From a virus (lineage: Duplodnaviria > Caudoviricetes), in the IMG/VR virus record IMGVR_UViG_3300017707_001960, positions 1-39,099 of that record: a DNA stretch of 39,099 nt; one strand, given 5' to 3'. Under the pieces are notes generated by a model. It was not told the DNA's origin. It did not search any database and worked only from the letters and a program-made list of their open reading frames with translations. Both the position numbers and the translations under genes were made by a program. Positions within the stretch are counted from its first letter, which is position 1; the number at the start of each line of letters is the position of its first letter. Shown here one piece after another: positions 1 to 38,983 of this stretch.

Positions 1-123
1 GTTCTCATTCCTTCGGACGCGCCTTGGCCTTCGTGAGTCGAGCCAATGCACCTTCCTGCGTGATCTTGATGGGCGTGCGAATCTCTCGTTCCGCTTTGTC
101 CACCCATGAGGCAGATACCTCCA
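1..123. repeat. Terminal direct repeat (copy 1), most likely circular assembly overlap
   Basis: 1-123 is identical to 38977-39099. Confidence 0.95.
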
Positions 124-196
124 GCAAATCAGCGGCCTCGGACTGAGTGAGTCCGAGGCGCTGGCGATGGCTTTTGAGTTGTTCAGCGAAGTTCAT
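5..196 (-). CDS. XRE-family HTH protein (cassette B4)
   Basis: LKSHRQRLGLTQSEAADLLEVS is a typical HTH_3/XRE pattern; paralog of 37593-37847. Confidence 0.85.
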   Translation of the reverse strand: MNFAEQLKSHRQRLGLTQSEAADLLEVSASWVDKAEREIRTPIKITQEGALARLTKAKARPKE

Positions 197-198
197 GC

Positions 199-462
199 TT
201 AGCCGCGAAAATTGAAGTTGTGGTTTTTTTCGGCTTCGCGCTCGTCTGCTTTGAGGGTTGCGACTGCAACTCCTGCTTCAATTTCATAACCAAAGCGGGA
301 GCCAAGGTCTGAGCACGAGACTTCAAAAGCGACGAGCAATGCTTCTTGAGCAGCGGAGCGTGGCGCCTTTTGGAAGCGGTCTGGAATTTCAATCACTTCG
401 TCCGTTGGAAGGCTGGCGAGATACTGAGTAGCTGCTTTTGGTGAGGTAAGGTCGATTTTCAT
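199..462 (-). CDS. Small hypothetical protein upstream of HTH (cassette B4)
   Basis: 87-aa ORF ending 2 nt before the HTH start, preceded by an AT-rich promoter/operator region. Confidence 0.75.
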   Translation of the reverse strand: MKIDLTSPKAATQYLASLPTDEVIEIPDRFQKAPRSAAQEALLVAFEVSCSDLGSRFGYEIEAGVAVATLKADEREAEKNHNFNFRG

Positions 463-494
463 ATTTGTGTTTGGTTCGTTGTTTCTGACTACCC

Positions 495-550
495 CTTATA
501 TTCGCACAATGTCCGAATGATGCAAATACTATTTTCGGACTTTGTGCGAT
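495..550 (-). promoter_or_regulatory. Promoter with twin palindromic operators (cassette B4)
   Basis: TTCGCACAATGTCCGAA (501-517) and TTCGGACTTTGTGCGAT (534-550); TTGCAT -35-like hexamer between them on the minus strand. Confidence 0.65.
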
Positions 551-578
551 TTATTTTCGAGGGATTTAGACCACGGAA

Positions 579-640
579 TGAGAACCATGAGATGCAGCAC
601 AACGGGGCTAAGGCCCCGTTGCTGATCTCAAACGTTCTCC
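579..640 (+). other. attC site B4
   Basis: R'' TGAGAAC, CATGA, L'' GATGCAGC, hairpin AACGGGGC/GCCCCGTT, L' GCTGATC, TCAAAC, R' GTTCTCC; extra base in L''. Confidence 0.92.
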
Positions 641-879
641 GAAAGCTCGCACGCCACAGCGAGCACCATCACGCTTGCCATAGGCTGACCGTCCTTGCTG
701 GCTTTCTTCGCGATCTGGATGGCCGCGCTGAGGATTGAGGTGTTGCCCTCCTTGGCTACCCCTCGAATGATGGGGCTGATTTCGTTGATCTTCTGGGGCC
801 AGTTGTCCCCATGCAGTCGGCGCATAGTGTCGCGTGCATCGTAGAGCTTGGCAGTAGTGCGGATTAGTTTTTCGGTCAT
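628..879 (-). CDS. Hypothetical protein (cassette B5)
   Basis: ORF MTEKLIR...ELSENV fills the interval between attC B4 and B5; start could extend to 915. Confidence 0.7.
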   Translation of the reverse strand: MTEKLIRTTAKLYDARDTMRRLHGDNWPQKINEISPIIRGVAKEGNTSILSAAIQIAKKASKDGQPMASVMVLAVACELSENV

Positions 880-902
880 AAGGTTGTCGTGGGTAAATCG
901 TC

Positions 903-995
903 GGAGAACCATCACATGCAGGCAACGGCTCGTAGCTCATCTGTCATGTCCGCGGGCGTCCATCGCTCGCCGTCGCCTGATCCGGGACGTTCTCC
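903..995 (+). other. attC site B5
   Basis: R'' GGAGAAC, CATCA, L'' CATGCAGG ... L' CCTGATC, CGGGAC, R' GTTCTCC. Confidence 0.88.
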
Positions 996-1246
996 GAGAA
1001 AAGCAGATGCGGTGCGTAAGCCCGAAGCCACTTTTCAGCCTCGTCTTGAGCGTTCACTTCATCCCGCATGATTTCTGCCAGCAGTTCAGCGGCATTGTCA
1101 CGCTGCTCTGCGCATCGTGTGCCGTTGCGTTTCCCTTCTGCCACCCATCCTTCGAGTTCCGTGATTCGATCTCGTAGCCTTGCGGATGATTCGTGAGCAT
1201 CATGCAGCCTGCGTTGCAGTTCATTCAGTTCGGTGTTTTCGGCCAT
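944..1246 (-). CDS. Hypothetical coiled-coil protein (cassette B6)
   Basis: ORF MAENTELNELQRRL...; helical charged sequence; stop lies in the attC B5 loop. Confidence 0.7.
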   Translation of the reverse strand: MAENTELNELQRRLHDAHESSARLRDRITELEGWVAEGKRNGTRCAEQRDNAAELLAEIMRDEVNAQDEAEKWLRAYAPHLLFSENVPDQATASDGRPRT

Positions 1247-1268
1247 AGTATGTCTTGGGTAGTTCGCC

Positions 1269-1361
1269 GGAGAACCCGGCAGTGCTGGCAACGGCGGGGA
1301 GTTGCCTGTTTATGGTTTCGGAAGTGCAGCGCCCGCCGTCGCCAGACTTGAGGCGTTCGAC
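1269..1361 (+). other. attC site B6
   Basis: R'' GGAGAAC, CCGGC, L'' AGTGCTGG ... L' CCAGACT, TGAGGC, R' GTTCGAC. Confidence 0.9.
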
Positions 1362-1606
1362 AAAGCATCGCGGGCGATTCCCTTGAGGTATTCCGCTGAA
1401 TCCGAAAGCGCGACGGCCATTCCGCCGCTGATTCCATTGATGCTCCCCGTCTTCCGCTTCTGGTCTTCCTGCATCCACCAGACGGGGCGGGCGATGCGGT
1501 CTAGTGCCTCGCGGAGTCTTGAGTTTTCACGCTCCACATCCTCGAAGATGCCCAGCGGGAGCCATTCCCTTCCTTGGGCTTTGTATTTTTCAGTTCGTGG
1601 TGTCAT
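1310..1606 (-). CDS. Hypothetical protein (cassette B7)
   Basis: ORF MTPRTEKY...; stop lies in the attC B6 loop. Confidence 0.7.
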   Translation of the reverse strand: MTPRTEKYKAQGREWLPLGIFEDVERENSRLREALDRIARPVWWMQEDQKRKTGSINGISGGMAVALSDSAEYLKGIARDALSNASSLATAGAALPKP

Positions 1607-1615
1607 AAAAAAGAG

Positions 1616-1674
1616 GTCGAACAAGGCGGTGGACTCAACCGCGAGGACGCGGCGAGTCACCTTGTTCGTTCGAG
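1616..1674 (+). other. attC site B7 (59 bp)
   Basis: R'' GTCGAAC, AAGGC, L'' GGTGGACT, CCGCG/CGCGG stem, L' AGTCACC, TTGTTC, R' GTTCGAG. Confidence 0.92.
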
Positions 1675-2913: not shown

Positions 2914-3306
2914 ATGAGAAAGCAGGCACAATTTACCCAAGACGCGGCTGCGGTGCTCCAGAAGGGGCGCTGGGCTGCGTCTGAGGTCGCCGCGCTGCTC
3001 GATGTGCCGGAGGTGATCGTGACGCGGTGGGCGCAGACGGGTTTGATTCCTGGGGCGGCTGTGGCAAACGGGCGCTGGATGCTGCCCGGGCGCGGCCTTT
3101 TCTTTTTTTTGGGCAGGAGGGTCGAAGCTCATTACTCTGTCGCCACGGTGGCGGCGATACTGGACCGGCCTGCGGCCACCGTGCGCGATTGGATCGCGTC
3201 AGGACGGCTGCGTGTGGTGAAGCTGGGCACGGCCCGGAGCGCGGCGACGCTGATCCCGGAAAGCTCGGTGCTGGACCTGCTGCAACCGGAAAGGAGGCGG
3301 GCATGA
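2914..3306 (+). CDS. Tandem HTH (excisionase/MerR-like) DNA-binding protein
   Basis: Two HTH_17-like repeats: ASEVAALLDVPEVIVTRWAQTG and SVATVAAILDRPAATVRDWIASGRL. Confidence 0.7.
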   Translation: MRKQAQFTQDAAAVLQKGRWAASEVAALLDVPEVIVTRWAQTGLIPGAAVANGRWMLPGRGLFFFLGRRVEAHYSVATVAAILDRPAATVRDWIASGRLRVVKLGTARSAATLIPESSVLDLLQPERRRA

Positions 3307-5961: not shown

Positions 5962-7541
5962 GTGACCAAAACCATCCTGCGGAGCGCAAACTTGCCGCAC
6001 TGAATCAAACGATGCCGTTCAGCGATGAGGCGGAAAAAGGGCTGCTGTCCTGCCTGCTGCAAGATCCTGAGCGCGTGATGGAATGCCAGCGTGATTTGCT
6101 GCCGGAGGCGTTTTACCACACGCAGAACCGCACCGTTTACGAGCTGCTGCTGGACATGGCGGCAAAGAACGAGCCGATTGATCCGCCCGCAGCGACGCAC
6201 CGGCTGCGTGACATGGGCAAGCTGGAGGATGTCGGCGGCGCGGCGGCCCTGACCGAGCTGTTTGCCTTTGTGCCGATTGCCGCGCATTATCCGTTCTACA
6301 AAAAAACCATCACGGACAAGTGGCTCATGCGTCAGTTGGTGGATGCCAGCGCGGACAACATGCAGGAAGGGTTTGCGCATGGGAGCACGGCGGACTTGGA
6401 GGATGCCAGCCAGGTGGTAGCACGGGCGGAGGAACGCATTTTCAAAGTGCTGGAAGCAGCCAGCGCGAACAAGGGCGGGCCGGAATGCCAGGTGTTGAAC
6501 TCGCAAAGCATGACGCATGAATGGCTGGATGCGTTTCAGCGCATCTGCGACAATCGCGGCAAGGTCATGGGCATTCAAACGGGATGGGCGGACGTTGACC
6601 GCACATTTCACGGACTGGCCCCGGACGGTGATGGCGATCTGCTCATGATCGGCGCGTTCCCTGGCATGGGAAAAACGGTGGGCGCGGTGTCGTTGATTGA
6701 GCACATCGCGGTGGAGTGCAAGGTGCCCACGCTGGTCTTTCCGTTGGAAATGGGCCGCACCGGCATGTGCCATCGGCTTTATCTTGGGCGCAGCGGCGTG
6801 AATGTGAATGTGTCCCGCAATGGCATGATGAAGCGCGATGACGTGGGCGCGGTATCGCGTGCAGCGCAGGAAATCTCAATGGCACCGATTTACTGGGACC
6901 ACAAAAGCAGCATCACGACGGCGGAGCTGCGGGCCAAGGTGCAACTGCATGTGCGCAGGCATGGGGTGAAGGTGGTGGTGATCGACCACTTCGGCCAGCT
7001 CAAGCCAAGCAGCGATCATGGGCGCAAGGACGAGCGCATCGGGCAGAAGGAAATCATGGAGTGCCTGCATGAAATCCGCCGCAATCTGGGCGTGCTGGTG
7101 GTGCTGTTTGTGCAGCTCGACAAAAAGGCCCGCGAGAAGCAGGACCGCAACCGGCCGCCTTCCCCTGGAGACATTCGCGGAGCCTCGGAGATGGTGGAAT
7201 ATCCCACGCACATCGCGTTCATTCACCGGCCGCCTGAAGTGCGGCCGTGGGCCGCTCTGGATGACAAGGAGAAAGAGCGGTGGCAGTCACTCACGCACGG
7301 ATTCCGCATCGACTGCCCGGAGCGCTGGCACGACGGGCGCGGACTGCCGGCACACATCGAAGTCTGCCAGGCTGACTACAACGAGCACGCCCGTTTCATC
7401 ATCGCCAAGAACCGATGGGGAGCAACGACGGATGAAATCTGCCTGCGCTTCAAACCCGCGCTGCAACGCTTTGAGGGCCGCACCACGCACCTTTACAGCA
7501 CCAACGACAAAAACCGGCAAGTGGTGCTGCCGGGCTTTTGA
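5958..7541 (+). CDS. dnaB: Replicative DnaB-like helicase
   Basis: N-terminal P.S.EAEK.LL domain, Walker A GAFPGMGKT, LEM, VVIDH, QL, IIAKNRWG. Confidence 0.93.
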   Translation: MSDQNHPAERKLAALNQTMPFSDEAEKGLLSCLLQDPERVMECQRDLLPEAFYHTQNRTVYELLLDMAAKNEPIDPPAATHRLRDMGKLEDVGGAAALTELFAFVPIAAHYPFYKKTITDKWLMRQLVDASADNMQEGFAHGSTADLEDASQVVARAEERIFKVLEAASANKGGPECQVLNSQSMTHEWLDAFQRICDNRGKVMGIQTGWADVDRTFHGLAPDGDGDLLMIGAFPGMGKTVGAVSLIEHIAVECKVPTLVFPLEMGRTGMCHRLYLGRSGVNVNVSRNGMMKRDDVGAVSRAAQEISMAPIYWDHKSSITTAELRAKVQLHVRRHGVKVVVIDHFGQLKPSSDHGRKDERIGQKEIMECLHEIRRNLGVLVVLFVQLDKKAREKQDRNRPPSPGDIRGASEMVEYPTHIAFIHRPPEVRPWAALDDKEKERWQSLTHGFRIDCPERWHDGRGLPAHIEVCQADYNEHARFIIAKNRWGATTDEICLRFKPALQRFEGRTTHLYSTNDKNRQVVLPGF

Positions 7542-7563
7542 ATCACGAACCAAGAACGAAACT

Positions 7564-7830
7564 ATGACCGCCTCCGAAATCCAACACCGTTTTACCAACA
7601 TCGTGGTCGAGCAGTTATGCTGTGATCCTGACGATGTGGTGGCTGATGCGACCCTGCGCGATTTGGGCGCGGATTCGCTCGATGAGATCGAAATCATCAT
7701 TTTCTGCGAGGAGGATTTTGAGATCAACATCCCGGATGACGATGCGGCCAAACTCAAAACCGTGCTCGATTGCGTGAACTATCTGCATGCCGAGCTGAAC
7801 CGCAATCCGCTGCTCATGCGCAACTCATAA
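7564..7830 (+). CDS. acpP: Acyl carrier protein
   Basis: IVVEQL...DLGADSLDEIEIII..EEDFEINIPDDDAAKLKTV with the phosphopantetheine Ser in DSL. Confidence 0.88.
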   Translation: MTASEIQHRFTNIVVEQLCCDPDDVVADATLRDLGADSLDEIEIIIFCEEDFEINIPDDDAAKLKTVLDCVNYLHAELNRNPLLMRNS

Positions 7831-7863
7831 CCCGTAACCCATAACTCAAAACACATACCCACC

Positions 7864-8274
7864 ATGCCCAACAAACTGAACGCCTACATCGACCCGCTCA
7901 AACTTCAGGGCGCGGTTTTGATGACTCTCAAAGACAAGACTGGAGCACCGACGGAGTGCCTGGTGATCCAGTTGAAAAACTCGCGGATTCGCCGGACAGA
8001 ACGATCTGGCAAGCTCGGGTTGTCCATCGACCTGGTGCCGAATCGCGATGGCAAGGACGAGTTTGGCAACACGCACTGGATCAAGGAGAGCACGACGAAG
8101 GCCGAACGCGAAAGCGCCACGCCGCCGAATCTGCCGTTTCTGGGCAATGCCCGCGAGTATGACGCGGCAACAGGCGGCCAGCGAACGGCACGGCCTGCGG
8201 GCGGTGTGCCGGTGACGGGCGGCGACTCCTCGCCGATGGCGGAGGGGATGGAGGACGATGACATACCGTTTTGA
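7864..8274 (+). CDS. SSB-like protein
   Basis: G/P-rich linker and acidic tail EDDDIPF; replication module context. Confidence 0.6.
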   Translation: MPNKLNAYIDPLKLQGAVLMTLKDKTGAPTECLVIQLKNSRIRRTERSGKLGLSIDLVPNRDGKDEFGNTHWIKESTTKAERESATPPNLPFLGNAREYDAATGGQRTARPAGGVPVTGGDSSPMAEGMEDDDIPF

Positions 8275-8360
8275 ACGTCTCGGATCAGTGACCGCGAACC
8301 CATGATCACGAATACACGACAGCCAGCCCAGAGCGGTTCACTTCATCCGATTTGTTCGGT
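8270..8360 (-). other. attC site A2
   Basis: Minus strand: R'' ACCGAAC, L'' GATGAAGT, GAACCGC/GCGGTC stem, L' ACTGATC, CGAGAC, R' GTTCAAA. Confidence 0.8.
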
Positions 8361-8595
8361 TTGTGGCGAGCCTGTGTGGGGCGGAACGAAGCGCCACCCA
8401 GCAACAAAGTGCTTGTTTCACTTTAGCTGCATTTGCGCGGAATGCGGTCATGAGGCGTTCTGGCTGACAACTAGGAAAAACCCAGAAGGCCGCTGGGTCT
8501 GCTTCTCGCTTCAATGCGGCTGGGTAAGCACTGAATACACCAAGCCATTTCATCAACCGAACGTCAAAACGCAGCAACCCCGAAACGAAGCCTAA
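8302..8595 (+). CDS. Cys-rich (Zn-finger-like) hypothetical protein (cassette A2)
   Basis: CSVC, CAEC and C..LQC motifs; starts in the attC A2 loop and ends in the attC A1 loop. Confidence 0.65.
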   Translation: MITNTRQPAQSGSLHPICSVCGEPVWGGTKRHPATKCLFHFSCICAECGHEAFWLTTRKNPEGRWVCFSLQCGWVSTEYTKPFHQPNVKTQQPRNEA

Positions 8596-8652
8596 GATAT
8601 GAGCCTGCCTGATGCCAACTCGAAGTCACAAGACCATCAACCCTTGTTCGGC
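8556..8652 (-). other. attC site A1 (degenerate L'' arm)
   Basis: Minus strand: R'' GCCGAAC and R' GTTCGGT with L' GCTGCGT; the L'' position (TTGATGGT) does not pair. Confidence 0.6.
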
Positions 8653-8862
8653 ACGGGGGATGAGATGGAGTTTCGCCGCCAGTTTGCCATTCAATTCTTG
8701 GCGAGCTATGCGGCTACTAACTTCAACGACTTATGCGCCAATGGACGCCAAGGCTCCCTTGAGCGGCTACCTGTCGAAGATGCTGAATATCTCAGCGGCA
8801 CAGCATGGCGTCACTGGTGCTACACGATGCCGATGAAGCCGAACAAGAATTATCCAGACTGA
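8599..8862 (+). CDS. Hypothetical protein (cassette A1)
   Basis: 87-aa ORF bounded by GTTCGGC (8646) and GCCGAAC (8838); ends inside attI-A. Confidence 0.7.
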   Translation: MSLPDANSKSQDHQPLFGTGDEMEFRRQFAIQFLASYAATNFNDLCANGRQGSLERLPVEDAEYLSGTAWRHWCYTMPMKPNKNYPD

Positions 8863-8910
8863 CTTTTCCTCTCAACACCTGCAAAACCGGAAACATTCTA
8901 AAACTTATGA
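8838..8910 (-). other. attI-like site A plus intI leader
   Basis: Minus-strand GTCTGGATAATTCTT-GTTCGGC just upstream of intI, non-palindromic; its core matches R'' of the first cassette. Confidence 0.82.
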
Positions 8911-9911
8911 ACCTGCGTGATACACTGGAACAAGTTCGGCTGACGTGCCGCATGCGGCGGTTGTCGAGGCACACGGAGGAGTCTTATGCGGGGTGGATCG
9001 TGCGGTTTGCCAGGCATGTGGCACGCAGGGTGGAAGAGTCACGGGAGGAACGGGTGCGGAGTTTTCTGGAGCAGATGGCCCCGCGTTGCTCGGCATCGAC
9101 GCAAAACCAGGCTTTCAATGCCATCGTGTTCTTTTACCGCGATGTGCTGCGTCAGCCGTTGGGTGATCTGGGGAAATGGACCCGTGCGAAACGGCCGGCA
9201 CGGCTGCCGTCGTGGCTGAGTCCTGATGAGATGCGGCGTTTGTTTGATGCGATGACACCGGGGCCGCTACTCATGGCGCAGGTGGCGTATGGCAGCGGCG
9301 TGCGACTGGCGGAACTGCTGGCGCTGCGGGTGAAGGACATCGACCTGGATGCGTGCCTCATCACGGTGCGCGGCGGCAAGGGTGACAAGGACCGCGTGAC
9401 ATGCCTGCCTCGCTCGCTGGTGTTCACGCTGCGGGCGCATTTGGACCGCATTCGGCTGCTGTATGATGCCGACCGTCAGGCGGGCGCGATGCCGGTGTAT
9501 CTGCCGGACCAACTGGAGCGCAAATATCCGAACGCTGGCCGCGAGTGGCCGTGGTTCTGGCTGTGGCCTGCGGCAAATCAAAGCACCGATCCACGCAGCG
9601 GCATCGTGCGCAGGCATCACATTCATGAGGACACGCTGGGCAAGGCGCTGAAGAATGCCCGCCGTCGCTGCGGACTGAGCAAACGAGTGACGGCGCACAC
9701 GCTGCGTCATAGCTTTGCCACGAACTTGCTGGCGAACGGAGCCAGCATCACGCAGGTGCAGGAATTGCTCGGGCACAGCAGCGTGGAAACGACGCAGATT
9801 TACACGCACTGCATTCCGCAGTTTGCCCGCAGCATCACGAGTCCGATGGACACGCTGCCGCAACCTGCCAACGTGGTGCCGTTTGAAACGCACACAAGGA
9901 GGGCGGCGTGA
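8907..9911 (+). CDS. intI: Integron integrase (IntI family tyrosine recombinase)
   Basis: N-terminal LSRHTEESY..W, ASTQNQAFNAIVFFYR; catalytic R, K (GKGDKDR), HTLRH, LGH, TQIY; IntI-specific insertion VYLPDQLERKYPNAGREWPWFWLWP...DPRSGIVRRHH. Confidence 0.95.
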   Translation: MNLRDTLEQVRLTCRMRRLSRHTEESYAGWIVRFARHVARRVEESREERVRSFLEQMAPRCSASTQNQAFNAIVFFYRDVLRQPLGDLGKWTRAKRPARLPSWLSPDEMRRLFDAMTPGPLLMAQVAYGSGVRLAELLALRVKDIDLDACLITVRGGKGDKDRVTCLPRSLVFTLRAHLDRIRLLYDADRQAGAMPVYLPDQLERKYPNAGREWPWFWLWPAANQSTDPRSGIVRRHHIHEDTLGKALKNARRRCGLSKRVTAHTLRHSFATNLLANGASITQVQELLGHSSVETTQIYTHCIPQFARSITSPMDTLPQPANVVPFETHTRRAA

Positions 9912-11884
9912 TGGAGGTGGATGCGGACAGCCGGATGGTCATCGAAGCCTTGCATGCGGGGCAGGAGGCGCATCCGGTGATTGAGCCGTGGGCGCTGGAG
10001 GATCTGCTGGCGCTGGGCGAGGTGGGGGCGGCGGAGGCGGTGGCGGCGCGGGCGGATGCGATGCGTGAGATGGCCGAGCAGCCGCTCGATCACGGGTGGA
10101 TTCCGCAGGACTGGTGGTTGTTCCTGCTGGAGCTGTGTCGCAAACGGCTGGAGCATCCGGGGCGCGTGCTGGAGGTGCTGGTGAGCGGCGGCATCCGTGC
10201 GGGCAAAACGCATGTGGCGGCATCGCTCGCGGTGCAGCATTGGAAACACGCGAAGAAGGCGACGGTGTTCTGCATGTCCCGCCGCGAGGAGGATTCGCAG
10301 AACTTGCAGCAGAAGCCCATCGAGTCGTTCTTGCCGGTGGAGGCGCTGGGTGGCGCGGCGGGGAAGATCAAGCAGGACAAGCACCAGAAAGCGAAGTTCA
10401 GCGGCGGCAAGTTCACCGACAACCAGTTTTCCCGCTACCTCATCGTGACCGGCGCGGACGGGCAACGCTACACGGGCGGCGGCATGGTGCAGTTTCGTTT
10501 CTTCACGCAGGAACTTGAGTCATTTCGAGGCTATGCGTTGACGTTTGTGTGGAGCGATGAAGGCATTCCGGTGGATCATGTGAAGGCGCTGAAGGATCGT
10601 CTCGCATCGCGGGCCATCGAAACGCAATCGGACGAGCACCGGAAGCAAATGCTGGCGCTGCAAGGCTACCTGGAGCCGCTGGCGGAGGGACGGCCCGGAG
10701 CACGACGGCCGCATGGCGAGCTGATCGGGGCGCTGATGCACGGCGTGCATCTCATCACCTACACGCCCGAAGAGGGATTCACGCCGACCGTGCGCTACTT
10801 CATGCAGGGCGCGGTGAAGCCCGACAAGTTCAAGGTCATCGCGCCCGAGCTGGCAAACAAAGGCGGCTGCAAAGATCCGCGTGTGCCGAAGATTGCCTAT
10901 CCGCAGGAGCCGACGCGGCTGGTGTGCTACCTGCACACGGCAGCCAACAAGTATGTTAACGTGTATCCGCAGTTGTCGAAGGACTACGCGGGCGCGGACG
11001 AGAAGACGATCCGTATCAAACTCTACGGCGACGCCGAGGCGGCGAGCCGGACGGAGTTCGAGGCGGTGTGGCGGCCGGAGCAGCATCTTTGCGATTGGAA
11101 AGACCTGCCGCGTGACGGCACGCTGTATGAGATCATCGACGGCGCGGAGGCAAAACCGTTCTTCATCGGCTGGTTCATTGTTGATCCGATGGGTCGCTAC
11201 TGGCAGGCGCAGGAATGGCCGTGTGAGAGCATCGCCATTGACGACATGCTTCCCGGCCCGTGGGCGACACTCAGCGAGAAGGACCGCATCAATGGCGATG
11301 AAGGCCCGGCGCAGCGTTTGCGGCTGGGGTGGAACTTTGAGCAGTATGCCGATCTGGTGTGGCAGATGCGCCGCCGTTTGCTGGTGAAGATGGCGGAGAC
11401 GGGCGGGGAGTGGCAAGGCAAGACGGTGGCCGCGCCGCAGGCGCGGAATGACGAAACCAGAATGGCAAATGCCGAAGGCATGCTGTGTGCGGAGCCGTAT
11501 GAGACGTATGGTGATCCGCGCTGGAGTCAGTGGAAGTCTGGGGCGACGGGGGCGACGATTCAGCAGGAGTTTTTCGATTTGCCGAATGGATTCACCATCC
11601 TGGTGCCGGAAGGCGTGCGGGTGCAGGAGGGGCTGGCGCTGGTGCGGGATGCGCTGGCGACGACGATCCTGGTGCAGCCGAAGGTGCGGGTGAACCGCGA
11701 ATGCACCAACACGATCTTCGGCCTGCAAAACTTCACGATTCCCGATTTCAGCGAAAACACGAAGCGCAAGGACGAAGCCTGCAAAGACCCGGTGGATGTG
11801 TGGCGGTATTTCTGCCTCGCGGGGCCGCGTTATTTGGACCGCGAGCGGTTCAAAAGAAGGCCCGAGCAGGAGTTTGGGTATTGA
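9911..11884 (+). CDS. terL: Terminase large subunit
   Basis: Walker A GGIRAGKT, Walker B FVWSDE, TYTP coupling motif, C-terminal nuclease KDPVDVWRY; GTG at 9908 is an alternative start. Confidence 0.85.
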   Translation: MEVDADSRMVIEALHAGQEAHPVIEPWALEDLLALGEVGAAEAVAARADAMREMAEQPLDHGWIPQDWWLFLLELCRKRLEHPGRVLEVLVSGGIRAGKTHVAASLAVQHWKHAKKATVFCMSRREEDSQNLQQKPIESFLPVEALGGAAGKIKQDKHQKAKFSGGKFTDNQFSRYLIVTGADGQRYTGGGMVQFRFFTQELESFRGYALTFVWSDEGIPVDHVKALKDRLASRAIETQSDEHRKQMLALQGYLEPLAEGRPGARRPHGELIGALMHGVHLITYTPEEGFTPTVRYFMQGAVKPDKFKVIAPELANKGGCKDPRVPKIAYPQEPTRLVCYLHTAANKYVNVYPQLSKDYAGADEKTIRIKLYGDAEAASRTEFEAVWRPEQHLCDWKDLPRDGTLYEIIDGAEAKPFFIGWFIVDPMGRYWQAQEWPCESIAIDDMLPGPWATLSEKDRINGDEGPAQRLRLGWNFEQYADLVWQMRRRLLVKMAETGGEWQGKTVAAPQARNDETRMANAEGMLCAEPYETYGDPRWSQWKSGATGATIQQEFFDLPNGFTILVPEGVRVQEGLALVRDALATTILVQPKVRVNRECTNTIFGLQNFTIPDFSENTKRKDEACKDPVDVWRYFCLAGPRYLDRERFKRRPEQEFGY

Positions 11885-14035: not shown

Positions 14036-16315
14036 ATGTCCGTCCCTGCTGAACTCCCCTCCGTCATCGACCCGGAGAAGCCGCTTGCGGACTGGAAGGT
14101 GACAGATGCGCTGGACGAAATGGAGGCCGCCTGCCGCGATGCGAGCGGATTCCTCAAGCAGATGGCGACCAATGAGCAGACGCGCAAATGCTGGTGGCAG
14201 AACAAGACCGGCACGGGCAAGAAGGCCAACACGAAAACCGCCGACGCCAAGCCTTTCAACGGCGCGGCCGATCATGAGGTGCATCTGACGCAGGCCGTGA
14301 TGAACCGCCGCAACGCGGCCCGCATCGCGGCGCTGATGGCCGGCAATCTCAACGTGACGCCGATGGAGAGCACGGACGCGAAGCGGGCCGGACTCATGCG
14401 CCAGGTGCTCCGCTACTACCTGAACGGCCCCATGCGGACGGAGTTTGTCACCCAAGGACTGCGGGCGGGCAGCTATGCCGACCGTTTCCGCGCCGGGGTG
14501 ATGTATGTGGGATGGAAGGAAGAGCGCGGCGTCGAGCCGATCCAACTCACGCGGGCTATGGTGGCGGAGATGCTGCAAATGCAGTTTGCCGCCGAGGCGC
14601 AGGACATGACGCTGATCGAGGGCATCGACTTCGAGGCGCTGGTGCTGGACGAAAGCCGCGAGGCTGAAATAATCGCACTGGTGCTGCGGAATCTGCCCGG
14701 TGCCGCCGAGCGCCGGAAGATTGGCGAAGCCTCCGTGAAACGGGCGCTGGCCCGCCTGCGAGCCGGGGATGACACCGCCGTGGTGCATGCCGCCTATGTG
14801 AAGCGTTCAAGTCCCTGCTGGGAAGCATTGCAGCCGTTTGTCGATGTCTTTTTCCCCTACGAGACGCTGATGGAAGATAATCTGGAAAGCTGCCGCTGGA
14901 TCGCCCGCGTGCGGTGGCGTTCCGCGCAGTGGATCAAGGAGCAGGCCGCTTTGCATGGCTGGGACAAGGCATGGGTGAAGGAGGTGCTGGAGAAGCACAA
15001 GGGGCGCAGCAATCTCTTCAGCAACAGCATGGCGTCCTACCCGTGGGCGCTCAGCGGTGCCGGGGTGAACTGGAGCGCCCGCACGAATGGCGAGGCGCAA
15101 AATCATTTGTATCAAATCATCGAGCTGTGGGATCGCGCTGTCACGGTGGACGGCCTGACGGGAACGTATCACACCATCCTGCATGCGGATGTGAAGGACA
15201 AGGTGGCGAAGCGCCAGCTCCGCATGGACTGGGATGGCTGTTATCCGTTCGTGCCGTTCACCTTCAGCCAGGACGAGCGATTGATTCTCGACGGCTTCAG
15301 TGTGCCGGAGATCACCATGACGAAGGAGCAGGCGGTGAAGGCGCAGTGGGACAGCCGCACGGATGCCGCCAGCCTGACCACCTTTCCCACCTGGACCGGC
15401 GACCCGGAGCTGGAGGGCTTGCGGCCCGCGCCCGGCGTCTTCCTGCCGTCCATCCGTGGCAAGGTGCCGCAAGCCTTGCAGATCCCGCCGCCTGACGGGC
15501 GCAGCATCGAGATTGAGCGCACGCTGCGGGAGAGCATCAACGAGTTTTTTGGCTTCCCCAGCCGCACGCTGCCGGACAGCGTGGCGATGATGATGGGCCA
15601 GGCTGATCTGGACTGGTTCATGCTCGCCATCTCGCAGTGCATCGCCCGCACGGCCAAGCTGATCCAGCAATACATGCCGCCGTTGCAAGGTGCCCGCATC
15701 ACCGGCACGAACGAACTCGTGACCGCCACCGCCAACGACGTGCGCGGCGGCTTTGACTTCCAGGCGAAGTTCAACGTGAAGAGTCTCGACGTGGAGTGGA
15801 CGAGCAAGCATCTGGGCTTCATCAAGGATATGATCGTGCCGCTGGACAATCGCGGCCAGATCAACACGCTGCCCATTCTGGAAGCGGGCTTCAACATGCT
15901 CGACCCGGGACTTGCGGCGCAATGTCTGCCGAAGGATGCCGACACGGCGCAGCGCCAGACGCTCGACATGGCCCGCATGCACCTGGCTGAAATCTTCACC
16001 GGAGGAGCGCCGGACGTGACCGAGGGCATGGACTTTGGCGGGCTGGCGCAAGCCGTGACAGATGAGATCACCCGCAGCCCGCTGCGGCAGCAGAGCATCA
16101 TCGGCGGCCAGCAGATCCATGTCGTGCTGACCAGCTACCTCGCGGGACTGGTGAACAACCAGAAGCAGCACGGCGGGGAAAATGCCCGCATCGGCCGCAC
16201 GCTCACGGACGACCCGCTGGCGCAACCGAGCGCGGCGGAAGGCTTGCTGCAAACGCTGCAAGGACTGCCGGAGGGCGTGAGTCTGGCGCAAGTGATGGGG
16301 GGAGTGAGTTCTTAG
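14036..16315 (+). CDS. Portal protein
   Basis: 759 aa, between terL and scaffold/capsid; YPFVPF and related podovirus-portal-like segments. Confidence 0.75.
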   Translation: MSVPAELPSVIDPEKPLADWKVTDALDEMEAACRDASGFLKQMATNEQTRKCWWQNKTGTGKKANTKTADAKPFNGAADHEVHLTQAVMNRRNAARIAALMAGNLNVTPMESTDAKRAGLMRQVLRYYLNGPMRTEFVTQGLRAGSYADRFRAGVMYVGWKEERGVEPIQLTRAMVAEMLQMQFAAEAQDMTLIEGIDFEALVLDESREAEIIALVLRNLPGAAERRKIGEASVKRALARLRAGDDTAVVHAAYVKRSSPCWEALQPFVDVFFPYETLMEDNLESCRWIARVRWRSAQWIKEQAALHGWDKAWVKEVLEKHKGRSNLFSNSMASYPWALSGAGVNWSARTNGEAQNHLYQIIELWDRAVTVDGLTGTYHTILHADVKDKVAKRQLRMDWDGCYPFVPFTFSQDERLILDGFSVPEITMTKEQAVKAQWDSRTDAASLTTFPTWTGDPELEGLRPAPGVFLPSIRGKVPQALQIPPPDGRSIEIERTLRESINEFFGFPSRTLPDSVAMMMGQADLDWFMLAISQCIARTAKLIQQYMPPLQGARITGTNELVTATANDVRGGFDFQAKFNVKSLDVEWTSKHLGFIKDMIVPLDNRGQINTLPILEAGFNMLDPGLAAQCLPKDADTAQRQTLDMARMHLAEIFTGGAPDVTEGMDFGGLAQAVTDEITRSPLRQQSIIGGQQIHVVLTSYLAGLVNNQKQHGGENARIGRTLTDDPLAQPSAAEGLLQTLQGLPEGVSLAQVMGGVSS

Positions 16316-34993: not shown

Positions 34994-35269
34994 TGTGGCA
35001 AAACGTGTGACATGGCGTGTTTTCAGGTGACGCAATGCGTTTATCTTCAAAGTATTGCATCAAATGGCACATCGGTCTTAAAATCCGCTGCCGTGAAAAC
35101 GGCTTGAGGGTTCGAGTCCCTTCATCGGCATCGTGATTTGAGGCGCTGCGTAGGGGGAATGGGGTAGGGTGCGGGGTGTGGAGGGTAGTTAAGAGGCTGG
35201 CGTGATGTGGTATATTGCGGCATATGTTGCTTGCGTGGTGTGACATGGAGTGTTACAAAGTGTGACATG
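34994..35269. repeat. Integrase arm-type repeats flanking attP
   Basis: TGTGGCA (34994), GTGTGACATGG (35005, 35238), GTGTTACA (35250), GTGTGACATG (35260). Confidence 0.65.
35077..35130 (+). other. attP core: 3' half of tRNA-Leu(TAA)
   Basis: CTTAAAA anticodon loop, TCCGC, variable arm GCCGT-GAAA-ACGGC, T arm GAGGG-TTCGAGT-CCCTT, CATCGGC-A; no 5' half; integrase adjacent. Confidence 0.85.
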
Positions 35270-35491
35270 AAGCTGAAACCTTTTTGGACTTTGGAGATGC
35301 AAGCGAGGCTGGATGGCCTGCGGGCATGGAATCTATGGGCGGCGCAAGGCGGGCTGCGGGGCAAGCCGTCGCGGCTGGCTTTGCGGGCCAGGGAGATCGC
35401 GGAGGCGCGGAGGGCGCTGGCGGAGGTGTATGCGGCGCTGGACCGGGTGTTTCCGCTGGGTTTGACTTGGGTGAAGGAGGGTGCAGTATGA
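35267..35491 (+). CDS. Small hypothetical protein
   Basis: ATGA overlap with the integrase gene. Confidence 0.4.
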   Translation: MKLKPFWTLEMQARLDGLRAWNLWAAQGGLRGKPSRLALRAREIAEARRALAEVYAALDRVFPLGLTWVKEGAV

Positions 35492-36648
35492 GTGCGCTGA
35501 AGCGCAAGATCGCGGGGGTGAAGGTGCGGTTTTACAAGCGCACGGCGGGATCAAATCTGAGCATGGATTTTGAGATCGACGGGGAGCGGTTTCAGGAATC
35601 GACGGGCTGGCCGCACATCGCGGACGCGGAGCGGGTGGCGTTGGATCGCATCAACAAGATCAACGAGGCTCGGCGTGCGTTTGGAGCGGGGGCACTGGTG
35701 CGTGGATCTATGGCGACGGTGGGCGAGGTGTGCGAGGCGCTGCGTGTAGGCGACAAGGTGATGGATGAGAAGACGCTGACGCGATACATGGCGGCGCTGG
35801 TGTGTCTGGCGCGGGTGGTGGATGAGGCGCGGCCTCTCGATGTGACGCTGGACAAGGTGATTGATCGCGTGACGCTGGAGCGGTATGTGAGTCTGGCGCA
35901 GGGCAATCAGGGGCGCGGCGTGAACTGGCACGATCAACTGCCGATGAACGGCGCGATCAATTCGACGCTGCGGAATGCGGCGAGTTTGTTCCAAGAGAGG
36001 CTGGTGGGAAGGCACTTGAGCGCGCTGCGGCTGCCGCCGCTGGAGCCGCTGCGGAAGTTCACGGCGCTGCCGACTCTGCCGACTCATTTTATCCCGTGGC
36101 CGACTGAGAATGTGACGGCGATGGACGCGGCAGCGCGGGCGCTGAAGACGGAGCAGCCGGAGCTGTGGCTGTGCCATGTGATGCTGCGCAGGCTGGGGCT
36201 GCGTGATGCGGAGCTGCTGGGCGCGCGGGCGGCCTGGGTGCAGTGGGGGCAGGATGGCAAGGCGTGGTTGGATCTGCGCACACGCACGGCGGAGGGTGGC
36301 GAGCCTGCTTTCCGACTGCTGAAGGGTGGCAAGCCGCGCCGTCTGGCGCTGGATGCGGAGATTCAAGAGGCTTTGCGGGGGCGCCCGGGCTGGCTGATCG
36401 GTGACGGCTGGGGCGAGTCAAAACGCTACGATTTTGTGTATCGTGAGCATTGCGACTGGTTGCGGCCGTTTGTGCCGGAGGGGCGCATGAAGGTGAATCA
36501 CGAGCTGCGGAAGCTGGCGGCGAGCCGGGTTTACACGCAGCACGGGATCGCCGCGGCGGCGTATTTCCTGGGCGACTCGGTGACGACGACGGAGCGCTAT
36601 TATGCGGCTTGGACGGCGGAGGCTCCGGTGGTGGCGTGGGAGGTGTGA
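35488..36648 (+). CDS. int: Phage tyrosine integrase
   Basis: N-terminal arm-binding-like domain, LGLRDAEL, HELRK, YFLGDS..TTERYY; next to attP. Confidence 0.82.
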   Translation: MSALKRKIAGVKVRFYKRTAGSNLSMDFEIDGERFQESTGWPHIADAERVALDRINKINEARRAFGAGALVRGSMATVGEVCEALRVGDKVMDEKTLTRYMAALVCLARVVDEARPLDVTLDKVIDRVTLERYVSLAQGNQGRGVNWHDQLPMNGAINSTLRNAASLFQERLVGRHLSALRLPPLEPLRKFTALPTLPTHFIPWPTENVTAMDAAARALKTEQPELWLCHVMLRRLGLRDAELLGARAAWVQWGQDGKAWLDLRTRTAEGGEPAFRLLKGGKPRRLALDAEIQEALRGRPGWLIGDGWGESKRYDFVYREHCDWLRPFVPEGRMKVNHELRKLAASRVYTQHGIAAAAYFLGDSVTTTERYYAAWTAEAPVVAWEV

Positions 36649-36676: not shown

Positions 36677-37234
36677 TTAGTTCTTGGTCGCACTAGCAAG
36701 GCCGGGCACGAGTTCGGCCTCGATGACGGTGGCGCTTTGCTGTTCCAAGGCGGCGCGGCGTTCGGCGGCGGCTTTGCGGGCGGCTTCGAGTCGGTCTTGA
36801 GCGGAGACGGTGACGACGGCTTTAATTTCCGTGGGCATGCCGTGCAGGCTGCGCTCGATGTCGTGGGCCATTTTGGTGCTCATGGACACGGCCATGAGGT
36901 CGGACTTTTTCGCGTCGGGTATCAACTCGACCATCTTTTCCGTGCCTTGGAGGACGGCGAGCTGCGCATTTTTGGCGGCGAGTTCGGCGAGTTGTTCAAC
37001 GGTGAACTCGGTTCGCATGAGGGCGGCGATGGTTTGCCGGGACTTTCCCACGCCTAGCTTGCCGAGTTCGCGTTCGAGTGCGGAGATGTTGGTGATGCCG
37101 TGCTCGCGGATCATCTCGACGCAAATGGCGTAGCTTTCGGGATCGCTGCTTTTCCAATTCTTCGCCGTGTGCTCGCGCCACAAGTCGATGGGATGCGGAG
37201 GCAGATCGGCGAGGGGAAGCGGCGGGGTGGTCAT
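36677..37234 (-). CDS. HTH/helical protein, terminase small subunit-like
   Basis: HTH-like NISALERELG...SRQTIAAL, helical core, G.PTEI motif, C-terminal VIEAELV; assignment is inference. Confidence 0.45.
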   Translation of the reverse strand: MTTPPLPLADLPPHPIDLWREHTAKNWKSSDPESYAICVEMIREHGITNISALERELGKLGVGKSRQTIAALMRTEFTVEQLAELAAKNAQLAVLQGTEKMVELIPDAKKSDLMAVSMSTKMAHDIERSLHGMPTEIKAVVTVSAQDRLEAARKAAAERRAALEQQSATVIEAELVPGLASATKN

Positions 37235-37302
37235 AGGTTTTAGAATGTTTCCGGTTTTGCGGGTGCTACCCAGAAATATTGTCTGGATAGTTCTTGTTAG
37301 CT
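37231..37302 (+). other. attI-like site B (second copy of attI plus intI leader)
   Basis: Reverse complement matches 8838-8910 in two blocks; core GTTAGCT at 37296 matches R'' at 37521. Confidence 0.82.
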
Positions 37303-37589
37303 GACTTCCAAAGGCGCGCCCACATCGACGGGCGGCGGAGTTTCTGGTTCTCAAATTCTAGTCGGTCGGCGCGGGCTTTTTCAGCGCGATACCATACACA
37401 CAGCCATGTGCGCCAACGGTTAATTGTGTATTGACTGCTCTGCCATTTATTAATCCGCCGTTCAAGCTTCTGACAGCGACGATTCAGGCGTCGGTTCGTC
37501 TCGCGGGCGATAGCCAAGTCAGCTAACAAGGCGCTGGACTCCGACAGAATGGGCTTCTGTGTCGTATCGATGGGGTGATTCTGTTCCAT
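37266..37589 (-). CDS. Hypothetical coiled-coil protein (cassette B1)
   Basis: Starts in the attC B1 loop and ends in attI-B (ANKNYPD). Confidence 0.7.
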   Translation of the reverse strand: MEQNHPIDTTQKPILSESSALLADLAIARETNRRLNRRCQKLERRINKWQSSQYTINRWRTWLCVWYRAEKARADRLEFENQKLRRPSMWARLWKSANKNYPDNISG

Positions 37590-37650
37590 ATTCTATTGTT
37601 CCATGGCAGGTTTCCGCCGCCCATTCTGCGGGTCAGCTTGATCGTTCGTC
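37521..37650 (+). other. attC site B1 (130 bp)
   Basis: R'' AGCTAAC, AAGGC, L'' GCTGGACT, CAGAATGGGC/GCCCATTCTG stem, L' GGTCAGC, TTGATC, R' GTTCGTC. Confidence 0.88.
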
Positions 37651-37847
37651 CCCTGAGTGCGTCGCTTGGCCTTCGCGAGCCTCGCAAGCGCCCCTTCCTG
37701 CGTTAGGACGTGCGGAAGCGTGCCTTTCTCCCACTGCCACACGGCACGCGGGGAAACGTCCAGGAATGCGGCAAGCTCGGCCTGTGTCAGGCCGAGCCGC
37801 TCGCGTTGGTCTTTGAGTTGTTCAGGGAAGCTCACAGGATTTTGCAT
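37593..37847 (-). CDS. XRE-family HTH protein (cassette B2)
   Basis: LKDQRERLGLTQAELAAFLDVSPRAVWQWEKG. Confidence 0.88.
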   Translation of the reverse strand: MQNPVSFPEQLKDQRERLGLTQAELAAFLDVSPRAVWQWEKGTLPHVLTQEGALARLAKAKRRTQGTNDQADPQNGRRKPAMEQ

Positions 37848-38014
37848 CCGATTTCGTTTCCGGTGACGAAGCTTGAGACGTATTCCACGTCTCCGTCTTC
37901 CGTCGTGACCTCATAGGAGGTTCCTACTTTGTCGCTGATTTGGCCGAGGACCGAGCGGCCCATTCCAAAGTTGATCTTGACTGCGGTGCCGTTTTTGATG
38001 TCGAGTGTTTTCAT
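37832..38014 (-). CDS. Small beta-rich hypothetical protein upstream of HTH (cassette B2)
   Basis: 60-aa ORF overlapping the HTH start; preceded by a promoter/operator region. Confidence 0.7.
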   Translation of the reverse strand: MKTLDIKNGTAVKINFGMGRSVLGQISDKVGTSYEVTTEDGDVEYVSSFVTGNEIGCKIL

Positions 38015-38039
38015 GGTGTGTTCGGTTTGGTTACGTTTC

Positions 38040-38093
38040 TAGTTTCGCACATTATGCGAACAGAACAAGTAATATTTTCGCATATTGTGCGAT
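38040..38093 (-). promoter_or_regulatory. Promoter with twin palindromic operators (cassette B2)
   Basis: TTCGCACATTATGCGAA (38044-38060) and TTCGCATATTGTGCGAT (38077-38093); same 33-bp offset as in B4. Confidence 0.7.
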
Positions 38094-38315
38094 TTATTTC
38101 TCAGAGCACTCTGAGCATAGAGGAGCATTCCCGAACGCCCCGCCTCGGCTGTCCATGCCGTCGCGGCGCATCCAGTTTGATGCTGGTAGGAACTTCCCGC
38201 AGCCGATACCAGAGCCAACCATGCCCGTCGTGCTCATACCGCACTGCGTAAGCCATTCGTGACGGGGACGAACCATGCGCTGCTGACCAACTGGCGGGGC
38301 GGATGAGTCTTTCAT
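38094..38315 (-). CDS. Possible Cys-containing small protein (cassette B2)
   Basis: ATG in the attC B2 loop overlaps the upstream stop (ATGA); CG..GCGKF..CSEC. Confidence 0.4.
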   Translation of the reverse strand: MKDSSAPPVGQQRMVRPRHEWLTQCGMSTTGMVGSGIGCGKFLPASNWMRRDGMDSRGGAFGNAPLCSECSEK

Positions 38316-38366
38316 GGTGGCGATGCTGGTAGCGCCCCGCCAGTGGCAGAGCTTGAAGCGTTCTCC
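38267..38366 (+). other. attC site B2
   Basis: R'' GACGAAC, CATGC, L'' GCTGCTGA, ACTGGCGGGGCG/CGCCCCGCCAGT stem, L' GCAGAGC, R' GTTCTCC. Confidence 0.88.
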
Positions 38367-38551
38367 CCCTTGCGGGAGCGCTTCGGACTGCGGAGTGCAA
38401 GAAGCTCTAGCGCCATCGCTGCCTCTTGCGTGATAGTGCCGCCTTGCTCGCGCTGGTTGATTGCTTTGCGGCTTACTCCCAGCGCAACGGCCAGAGCGGC
38501 CTGGGTCATCCCCAGCCGCTCCCGTGTGGCTTTGTATTCGTCGGAGGTCAT
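38312..38551 (-). CDS. XRE-family HTH protein (cassette B3)
   Basis: MTSDEYKATRERLGMTQAALAVALGVSRKAINQREQG. Confidence 0.85.
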   Translation of the reverse strand: MTSDEYKATRERLGMTQAALAVALGVSRKAINQREQGGTITQEAAMALELLALRSPKRSRKGENASSSATGGALPASPP

Positions 38552-38799
38552 GCTACTGCTTTTTCCCATCCGCGAAAGTTGCCGGACTCAAACTCATTGA
38601 TCATGTAAAGCTTCGTTCCGTTGCCGCGAGTCGCTACGATTTCGCGCTTGATCTTGTTTTCCTTCATCACCCGAGCGGTGTTTTCACGACCGCGAGCGGC
38701 GACTTGCTCTGGAGTGAAGGATTGCAGGACATTGAATGTGAGACCGTTGATTTCGATCTTTTCGATTGCGATGTGAGGGGCGATTGATGTTGTGTTCAT
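38548..38799 (-). CDS. Small hypothetical protein upstream of HTH (cassette B3)
   Basis: 83-aa ORF with ATGA overlap to the HTH gene. Confidence 0.72.
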   Translation of the reverse strand: MNTTSIAPHIAIEKIEINGLTFNVLQSFTPEQVAARGRENTARVMKENKIKREIVATRGNGTKLYMINEFESGNFRGWEKAVA

Positions 38800-38807
38800 G
38801 GTGAGAG

Positions 38808-38859
38808 ATAGTAACCCAAGGTTACAGCCAGTCAAACGCTAAATGTAACTTTTCGTAAC
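38808..38859 (-). promoter_or_regulatory. Sigma70-like promoter with twin operators (cassette B3)
   Basis: Minus strand TTGACT-N16-TACTAT; GTAACCCAAGGTTAC (38811-38825) in the spacer and GTAACTTTTCGTAAC (38845-38859). Confidence 0.7.
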
Positions 38860-38884
38860 TTTATTCAACGTCTGGCAGAACGGG

Positions 38885-38983
38885 GGAGAACAAGCCCACT
38901 GGAGCTAACCTGATGGGCGAGGTTGCACCATCGGCTAGCCACGCTTTGCCCGCCCATCAGGTAGCTCACTGGAGATGTTCTCA
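38885..38983 (+). other. attC site B3
   Basis: R'' GGAGAAC, L'' ACTGGAGC, ACCTGATGGGCG/CGCCCATCAGGT stem, L' GCTCACT, GGAGAT, R' GTTCTCA. Confidence 0.85.

Follow-up and report, generated by a model that had tools for sequence, protein, structure and literature searches.

A likely phage-adapted integron with reversed cassette genes in a complete 39-kb viral genome

Results

The genome and the integron locus

The window, meaning the whole stretch of DNA that we analyzed, is 39,099 nucleotides long and is a complete viral record with direct terminal repeats of 123 bp; the circular length is 38,976 bp. The genome encodes DnaB, an acyl carrier protein, the large terminase subunit (TerL), a major capsid protein and an endolysin. 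Two sequencing runs contain over half of the words of the region, and both are freshwater metagenomes. Within the window, ARAGORN finds no whole tRNA and Rfam yields no meaningful match. The acyl carrier protein gene (7567-7830) is located between dnaB and an ssb-like gene, and its presence varies among close relatives. A contig in run X4 skips this gene, joining 7557 to 7862.

An integron integrase gene (intI) lies directly upstream of terL, and a first array of two cassettes (array A) runs from it along the minus strand, away from intI (Table 1). A second attI followed by seven cassettes (array B) extends from 37,297 across the origin to 1,674, and was missed in the original prediction.

Table 1 Features of the integron and of neighboring genes (positions in the window)
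Feature	Position	Strand	Details
Cassette B4	1..634	+	starts at terminal repeat (38978 = 2); attC 579-640 (z -8.3); small gene and HTH gene on - strand
Cassette B5	635..989	+	attC 903-995; gene 628-915 on - strand
Cassette B6	990..1355	+	attC 1269-1361; gene on - strand
Cassette B7	1356..1674	+	attC 1616-1674 (z -4.8); gene on - strand
attC of A2	8270..8360	-	arms pair; two extra bases; z about -1.5
Cassette A2	8276..8561	-	286 bp; complementary ends
Gene A2	8302-8595	+	97 aa, Cys-rich; no family match
attC of A1	8556..8652	-	degenerate or chimeric; R boxes present, arms unpaired, z +0.8
Cassette A1	8562..8843	-	282 bp; complementary ends
Gene A1	8599-8862	+	87 aa; no family match
attI-A and leader	8838..8906	-	crossover G/TT between 8844 and 8843
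intI	8907..9911	+	integron integrase, 334 aa; TIGR02249 profile, alignment to VchIntIA, residue conservation
terL	9911..11884	+	large terminase subunit, directly downstream of intI; PHROG phrog_2, E 9.5e-8
Tyrosine-recombinase-like gene	35488..36648	+	divergent; likely prophage integrase; PHROG E 2.6e-4; Pfam arm domain below cut-off
Gene downstream of attI-B	36677..37234	-	likely small terminase subunit; position and weak feature lead
attI-B and leader	37232..37302	+	second copy of attI-A; crossover after G37296
Cassette B1	37297..37644	+	attC 37521-37650; gene 37266-37589 on - strand
Cassette B2	37645..38360	+	attC 38267-38366; small gene and HTH gene on - strand
Cassette B3	38361..38977	+	attC 38885-38983 (z -7.4); small gene and HTH gene on - strand

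The integron integrase

The predicted protein scores 355 bits against the NCBIfam model TIGR02249, which exceeds the cut-off of 265, whereas its scores on the XerC model (150 bits) and the XerD model (137 bits) each fall below that model's own cut-off. Its alignment to VchIntIA (2A3V) is a single stretch that continues through the IntI insertion (E 3e-65), while the alignments to XerA and XerD break into two. The protein is thus a tyrosine recombinase with the integron-specific insertion, and not an Xer protein or ordinary phage integrase, which would score best to Xer models and lack the insertion. Residues R133, K158, H264, R267, H290 and Y299, which we take to be the catalytic set of IntI, are unchanged across 22 aligned relatives. 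These results agree with the original prediction that the recombinase is intact and carries the IntI-specific insertion. In comparison with its 96% identical relative (L140), intI has 39 synonymous and 12 non-synonymous codon differences.

The stop codon of intI overlaps the TerL ATG (9911). Control of intI by the SOS response (LexA) is common, although not universal. Allowing one mismatch, we found no match at intI to a candidate Verrucomicrobia LexA motif. No sigma-70-type promoter was found in 7400-10100, which says little for the host group concerned.

The second recombinase and the terminase-like gene

The original prediction included a separate prophage integrase with an attP at 35-36.6 kb. 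An integrase-like gene is indeed present there, with weak matches only, and it adjoins a fragment of tRNA-Leu(TAA) at approximately 35068-35130; we infer that the site of this fragment acts as the attP. The fragment is 84% identical to the same tRNA of the family to which locus L059 (see below) belongs, which is compatible with a host of that family, but is not an identification. The host is likely a Verrucomicrobiaceae bacterium. We noticed a 16-bp word that is common to the start of cassette A1 (8822-8837, minus strand) and the end of the tRNA fragment (35121-35136, plus strand). Based on a rough estimate, we regard this match as chance.

Downstream of attI-B, the likely small terminase gene has no Pfam match and no match in GenBank phages. 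One of its Atlas neighbors bears Terminase_5 at 0.91, which is a lead only. Its homologues stand immediately before terL in some relatives (L054, L055, L058 and L140); here, and in several other phages, the gene has moved, along with an attI, to a place beside the prophage integrase.

Array A

The original prediction placed an attI-like GTT site about 60 bp upstream of the intI start codon, and the crossover point we located is 63 bp from this ATG. The stop codon of cassette gene A1 lies in attI-A. In three related loci (L003, L004 and L005), the attI-A site is followed by other first cassettes.

Both cassettes have the complementary ends that had been predicted, and their four heptamers are present (at 8354, 8556, 8646 and 8838). 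These words are barely enriched in themselves (16 versus 10 expected, and 28 versus 23), so the evidence for them is their position. The extra bases of the A2 attC are on one of its arms, which indicates that the minus strand is the top strand. The R' box of this attC overlaps the stop codon of the upstream ssb-like gene, and the A1 attC contains both the stop codon of gene A2 and the start codon of gene A1. Both genes have the same direction as ssb, intI and terL, and neither belongs to a family in NCBIfam, PHROGs or Pfam. The description of the integron as complete therefore applies to IntI, attI, the cassettes and the distal attC, which is a proper site, but not to the attC of the first cassette, which is degenerate.

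The A1 body is 81% identical over 196 nt to L304, a 92-kb viral contig. At positions 2990-3205 of this contig is the A1 gene body, with limits near both R boxes, and no attC is obvious by eye around it. The L304 copy is either a source gene or a decayed A1 cassette. The A2 body is 84% identical over 209 nt to L306, in a match that spans the crossover to the R'' box, while the A2 attC is 91% identical to two attCs in L302 that have other bodies.

In three runs, contigs connect 8642 back to 8344, a pattern that would result if another replicon had an A2-like body behind the degenerate attC. We rejected an excision circle of array A as the source of this joint, because the joint is not at the crossover, and belongs to a deeper, slightly different contig in two of the three runs. 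No joint at the G/TT crossover was found in the contigs of 4 runs, and contigs drop rare forms.

Array B

The attI-B leads into the ATG at 37234, and the repeat that it forms with attI-A covers the attI and the leader as far as the start codon. The genes of array B point to its attI. All seven cassettes have matched ends, and the arms of their attCs pair and have extra bases, with folding z-scores between -1.6 and -8.3. Cassette B6 recurs whole in L143 next to other neighbors (91% identity across 361 of 367 nt), and a contig in run X4 covers only 989-1349. Two runs have contigs that share the B4 attC alone, with other flanks.

Three adjacent cassettes (37645-38977 and 1-634) each contain a small unknown gene and an XRE-type HTH gene. 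Similar inverted repeats that resemble a promoter or operator of their own precede these modules, and related modules occur in L143, L009 and L170. PADLOC gave only weak HTH or coiled-coil matches for the array B genes.

Beyond array B, positions 1675-1740 match the DNA after the terminase-like small gene in L165, L300 and L301, which hints at a possible rearrangement that placed array B. Elsewhere, a strong inverted repeat at 15159-15253 within a large gene (14036-16315) has an attC-like score on the minus strand. This repeat is isolated and probably unrelated.

Properties of the attC and attI sites

We called attC sites with a purpose-made heuristic, not the IntegronFinder model; it finds a few matches of 11-14 points per shuffled genome. 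The scan needed to allow a longer right spacer, as most sites are otherwise missed.

Based on arm alignment and folding, eight of the nine attC sites form the expected hairpin of paired arms with an unpaired spacer and extra bases; the exception is the A1 site. The R'' box is complementary to the start of its own cassette in all nine (two of two in array A, seven of seven in array B). An attI is present at the 5' end of intI, and cassettes are joined to it at G/TT, as seen in L003-L005 and in a pair of empty and filled sites (L048/L042).

In a typical integron, the top strand carries the cassette genes, which precede their attC and are expressed from Pc. By contrast, the genes of all nine cassettes here are on the opposite strand. 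This reversal is a variation in expression rather than in the recombination platform.

Polarity and reading frame of cassette genes

We studied polarity in cassettes that lie between two called attCs and whose ends match exactly over 7 nt. The reverse frame in which the junction AAC encodes Asn is open over the entire body in 14 of 21 cassettes of the viral clade, 6 of 11 of the metagenome clade and 25 of 48 other viral cassettes, versus 0 of 20 chromosomal cassettes and 1 of 17 from the host family. For 14 of the 17 host-family cassettes, the top strand holds the longer open frame. Phage cassettes are also shorter, with a median body of 294 nt versus 614 nt in bacteria.

Among 114 distinct cassettes, a reverse frame is open to the junction in 72, and in 69 of these it is the frame just described. 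An ATG is located inside the cassette's own attC in 56 of the 69, and the median borrowed tail is 11 residues. Most cassette genes thus begin in their own attC, read over the junction in the same fixed frame and end at a stop codon that the neighboring site supplies. The remaining 42 of the 114 have no frame open across the body; these are either cassettes with two genes, cases in which the gene has its own stop, or cassettes whose boundaries were miscalled.

A stop in that frame occurs within all 43 attCs of the clade and 25 of 29 host-family attCs. We considered whether this in-frame stop is a phage adaptation, and rejected the idea: the signal is strong against mixed chromosomes (39, 40 and 43 of 58), but weak against the host family (25, 9 and 13 of 29). 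Since most host-family attCs also offer the stop, the phage cassette genes appear to use a pre-existing attC feature.

Cassette cargo and shared attC sites

Of the cassette proteins in relatives, 15 of 100 match Pfam. The matches comprise five DNA methylases, two Acb2/Tad1 proteins and one each of RNA ligase, PAPS reductase, RMF, Clp_N, DnaG zinc ribbon, DUF5131, WDGH and HTH. The window's own cassette genes have no Pfam match except for HTH and one weak match below the cut-off.

Within the set of 114 cassettes, there are 15 pairs whose attCs are at least 85% identical but whose bodies are unrelated. In 10 of these pairs the similarity breaks within 10 nt of the R'' end, and in the other five, which belong to one attC family, it breaks 18-23 nt before. 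A crossover at R'' would explain such re-paired attCs, with short-homology recombination as an alternative.

Related phages

A search with terL found 32 loci, of which one is a copy of this genome; 23 of the other 31 span ssb to terL. None of these 23 has intI between ssb and terL, while the slot contains between zero and four cassettes. The attI of L048 is empty, and an almost identical attI in L042 is followed by a single cassette at G/TT. In L028, L032 and L035, respectively one, two and three cassettes lie behind one attI. L055 and L058 have no cassette, and the terminase-like small gene directly follows ssb. In L048 (7457-8400) and at a contig end in L049, another attI platform follows the putative portal gene; it has cassettes in L048 and the start of intI in L049.

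Ten whole records were searched. A full IntI is encoded elsewhere in two of them, which are near-identical; two others contain fragments, and the remaining six lack it, although only one of these six (G003) is at least 90% complete. Truncated copies of intI occur in G002 and G005.

Some phages have an intI that is 96% identical and an ssb that is 94% identical to those studied here, while their terL is just 27-28% identical and their slot contains 4-6 other cassettes. Among these phages, the cassettes closest to attI differ and those farther away are shared, which is the pattern that insertion at attI should give. One cassette (cassette 28) has three different upstream neighbors. The position of intI itself varies by phage: it precedes either terL or the small terminase-like gene that lies close to the prophage integrase.

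On these comparisons, intI is, it would seem, a dispensable accessory gene that changes position among relatives. The earlier description of an integron built into the phage's core genome was therefore too strong, given that intI is missing from the slot in all 23 loci, that the complete G003 lacks it altogether and that other phages have it at another slot. The content at this slot is not invariant: related phages have 0-6 cassettes, with junctions at G/TT. Such variable arrays support the original idea that the phage probably captures and shuffles genes using IntI.

Distribution and phylogeny of the phage IntI

The closest IntIs (58-96% identity) are in viral or short metagenome contigs, plus one prophage-like contig end, and at least 120 homologues have an identity of 61% or more. 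No chromosomal IntI of the host family exceeds 52% identity. Relatives are encoded by 340 stretches of the genome collection, and among the best 80 only L059 exceeds 50% (73%). This contig end consists of intI, reversed cassettes, a DUF5131 gene and an HTH gene, ahead of ordinary chromosomal genes. Searches of G006 yielded neither terL nor the putative portal, so L059 is rated only as prophage-like. A second, separate IntI in the genome of L059, at 46%, is accompanied by a canonical cassette. Within 145 genomes of its family, 59 match IntI at E 1e-40 or better, and none besides L059 exceeds 52%.

Trees were inferred from de-duplicated or sampled sets of 188 (of 257), 100 and 75 IntI sequences, with XerC as the outgroup by our choice of rooting. 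The phage protein nests among IntIs, in accord with its profile scores, and does not group with Xer proteins. In the 75-sequence tree it belongs to a group of 15 tips that consists of viral loci and L059 (SH-aLRT 94). This group is nested in one of 28 tips (99.6), which also includes two family IntIs that lie on phage contigs, as well as three chromosomal IntIs of Verrucomicrobiae. Support for separating the wider phage group from the latter three is not robust (0.994, 70.9 and 0 across the three trees). Other viral IntIs with reversed cassettes are placed elsewhere, with weak deep branches, which suggests that phage IntIs with reversed cassettes may have several origins. One viral record (L212) has canonical cassettes and a host-like look.

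In GenBank, only 9 of 50,697 phage records match the IntI studied here at E 1e-30 or better, all at less than 60% identity. The GenBank virus Rctr41k has an IntI-like gene, but the heuristic scan found no attC upstream of it.

Discussion

Possible explanations

We consider it probable that the integron belongs to the phage lineage, whose own IntI works the cassettes at two attI sites, with reversed genes that are read from phage operons. According to this explanation, the phage IntI would insert and excise cassettes at both attI sites. Recombination would follow the known attC bottom-strand pathway, with chemistry taken by analogy from established integron work. The arrays would be transcribed toward attI and onward into intI or the terminase genes, so that a new cassette would land farthest from the promoter and no Pc would be needed. 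With the fixed frame, whichever site adjoins a gene would supply the stop codon and roughly 11 residues of tail, so that a cassette would be translated in any position. The intI gene would be a dispensable helper for both arrays, and could also act in trans on the arrays of phages without intI during co-infection or lysogeny. The cassette cargo would be accessory, and in part counter-defence. As the A1 attC does not fold, cassette A1 may be immobile. Among the points against this explanation, many relatives vary in content without an intI at the slot, and the variable cassettes of the L028 series are distal, not at attI.

In another reading, the arrays are real and mobile, but a chromosomal IntI of the host does most of the recombination and the phage intI is an occasional passenger. 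The host-family genomes could recombine phage attCs, as 59 of 145 have an IntI and their attCs have the same build. Moreover, none of the 23 terL relatives has intI at the slot, G003 has none at all, and a bacterial IntI1 was reported to recombine phage attCs (Qi et al. 2023, PMC9892861). On the other hand, the phage intI has more synonymous than non-synonymous change, has at least 120 homologues at 61% or more and stays attached to attI, which, according to the relevant part of PMC2095811, is recognized by its cognate integrase only. We therefore regard the host integrase as an unlikely main agent.

It is very improbable that the locus is a captured piece of a host chromosomal integron that is now decaying, as in the Vibrio and Shewanella cases. 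The nearest outside relatives of the phage IntI are indeed chromosomal Verrucomicrobiae proteins, one attC is degenerate and intI is truncated in G002 and G005. However, host cassette genes use the canonical strand (14 of 17) and are longer than the phage ones, and this polarity contrast largely contradicts the idea. In addition, host IntIs are at most 52% identical, and close phages differ in their arrays at exact junctions.

Turnover by homologous or short-homology recombination between similar hairpins, with no site-specific enzyme, would account for the recurrence of similar attCs across phages and for the 5 of 15 shared-attC pairs in which similarity starts 18-23 nt before the R'' end, but is just as hard to believe, because shared cassettes stop at G/TT against unrelated neighbors and empty and filled attI sites differ by exactly one cassette.

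If the integron does belong to the phage lineage, a more far-reaching version can be proposed, although only tentatively. Phages might run a mirror-image integron system with IntI lineages of their own and a pool that is rich in counter-defence genes and separated from that of hosts by polarity, in which new cassettes arise by a second crossover at R''. This crossover would link a new gene body to an attC that is already present and that brings along its ribosome site and start codon, thereby making a new cassette. A possible trace of this process is seen in the attC-sharing pairs, the majority of which break close to the R'' end, and in the different left flank of the A2 body in L306.

Comparison with known integrons

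The phage integron shares much with bacterial integrons such as class 1 (IntI1/attI1), VchIntIA (2A3V) and the chromosomal integrons of Verrucomicrobiota. It has an IntI with the insertion, an attI just upstream of intI and an array leading away from it, as well as attC hairpins with R'', L'', L' and R' boxes, an unpaired spacer, extra bases and a G/TT crossover. For the definitions of attC architecture and the recombination chemistry, we relied on the corresponding parts of PMC8946536 and PMC2727003. Unlike in bacterial integrons, the phage cassette genes are on the opposite strand, start in their own attC and end in the next site. There are also two attI platforms per intI, the arrays lie inside phage operons, the cassettes are short and intI is gained, lost and moved among relatives.

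Qi et al. screened 10,705 phage genomes, and their account lists 17 CALINs and three complete integrons, all of host types: a Vibrio chromosomal fragment, a class 1 integron in P1 and one with a Shewanella IntI that is 95% identical to the host kind (PMC9892861). As in that study, we see complete integrons in temperate phages, attC clusters without an integrase and methylase cargo. By contrast, a phage-specific IntI lineage, reversed genes and borrowed stops are not described in the part of PMC9892861 that we drew on. A polarity variant is also known in the form of integrons with inverted integrases (Cury et al. 2016, PMC4889954). However, as presented there, intI is flipped relative to the attCs, whereas here intI and the attCs have the usual arrangement and the cassette genes are flipped.

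We found no description of a phage-specific IntI lineage with reversed cassettes in the literature covered, whose scope was freely available text exclusive of subscription journals and bioRxiv supplements. Term searches of PMC4889954, PMC13366799, PMC11054128 and PMC13323075 returned nothing on this subject in the text that they reached.

Conclusions

As judged from sequence comparisons, the integron is real and of a probable phage-adapted kind with reversed cassettes, and the capture-and-shuffle idea of the original prediction is likely correct. Beyond that prediction, there is a second attI with seven cassettes, and the cassette genes are reversed. The genome should be a good test case, as it is complete at 39 kb and contains one integrase together with two docking sites and nine cassettes.

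If true, the phage integron would account for the strings of tiny variable genes in these phages. The creation of cassettes is, to our knowledge, an open question in integron biology. The phage arrays offer compact substrates for studying how cassettes arise and whether polarity separates the phage and host pools. The proposed R'' crossover, if correct, would be a testable route to cassette creation.

Integrons are regarded as bacterial devices, and recent work indicates that they store anti-phage defences. The cargo of the relatives, which includes methylases and Acb2/Tad1 proteins, bears on the conflict between phages and hosts. A phage lineage with its own IntI, attI sites and cassette pool would, if true, represent the same machine on the other side of this conflict.
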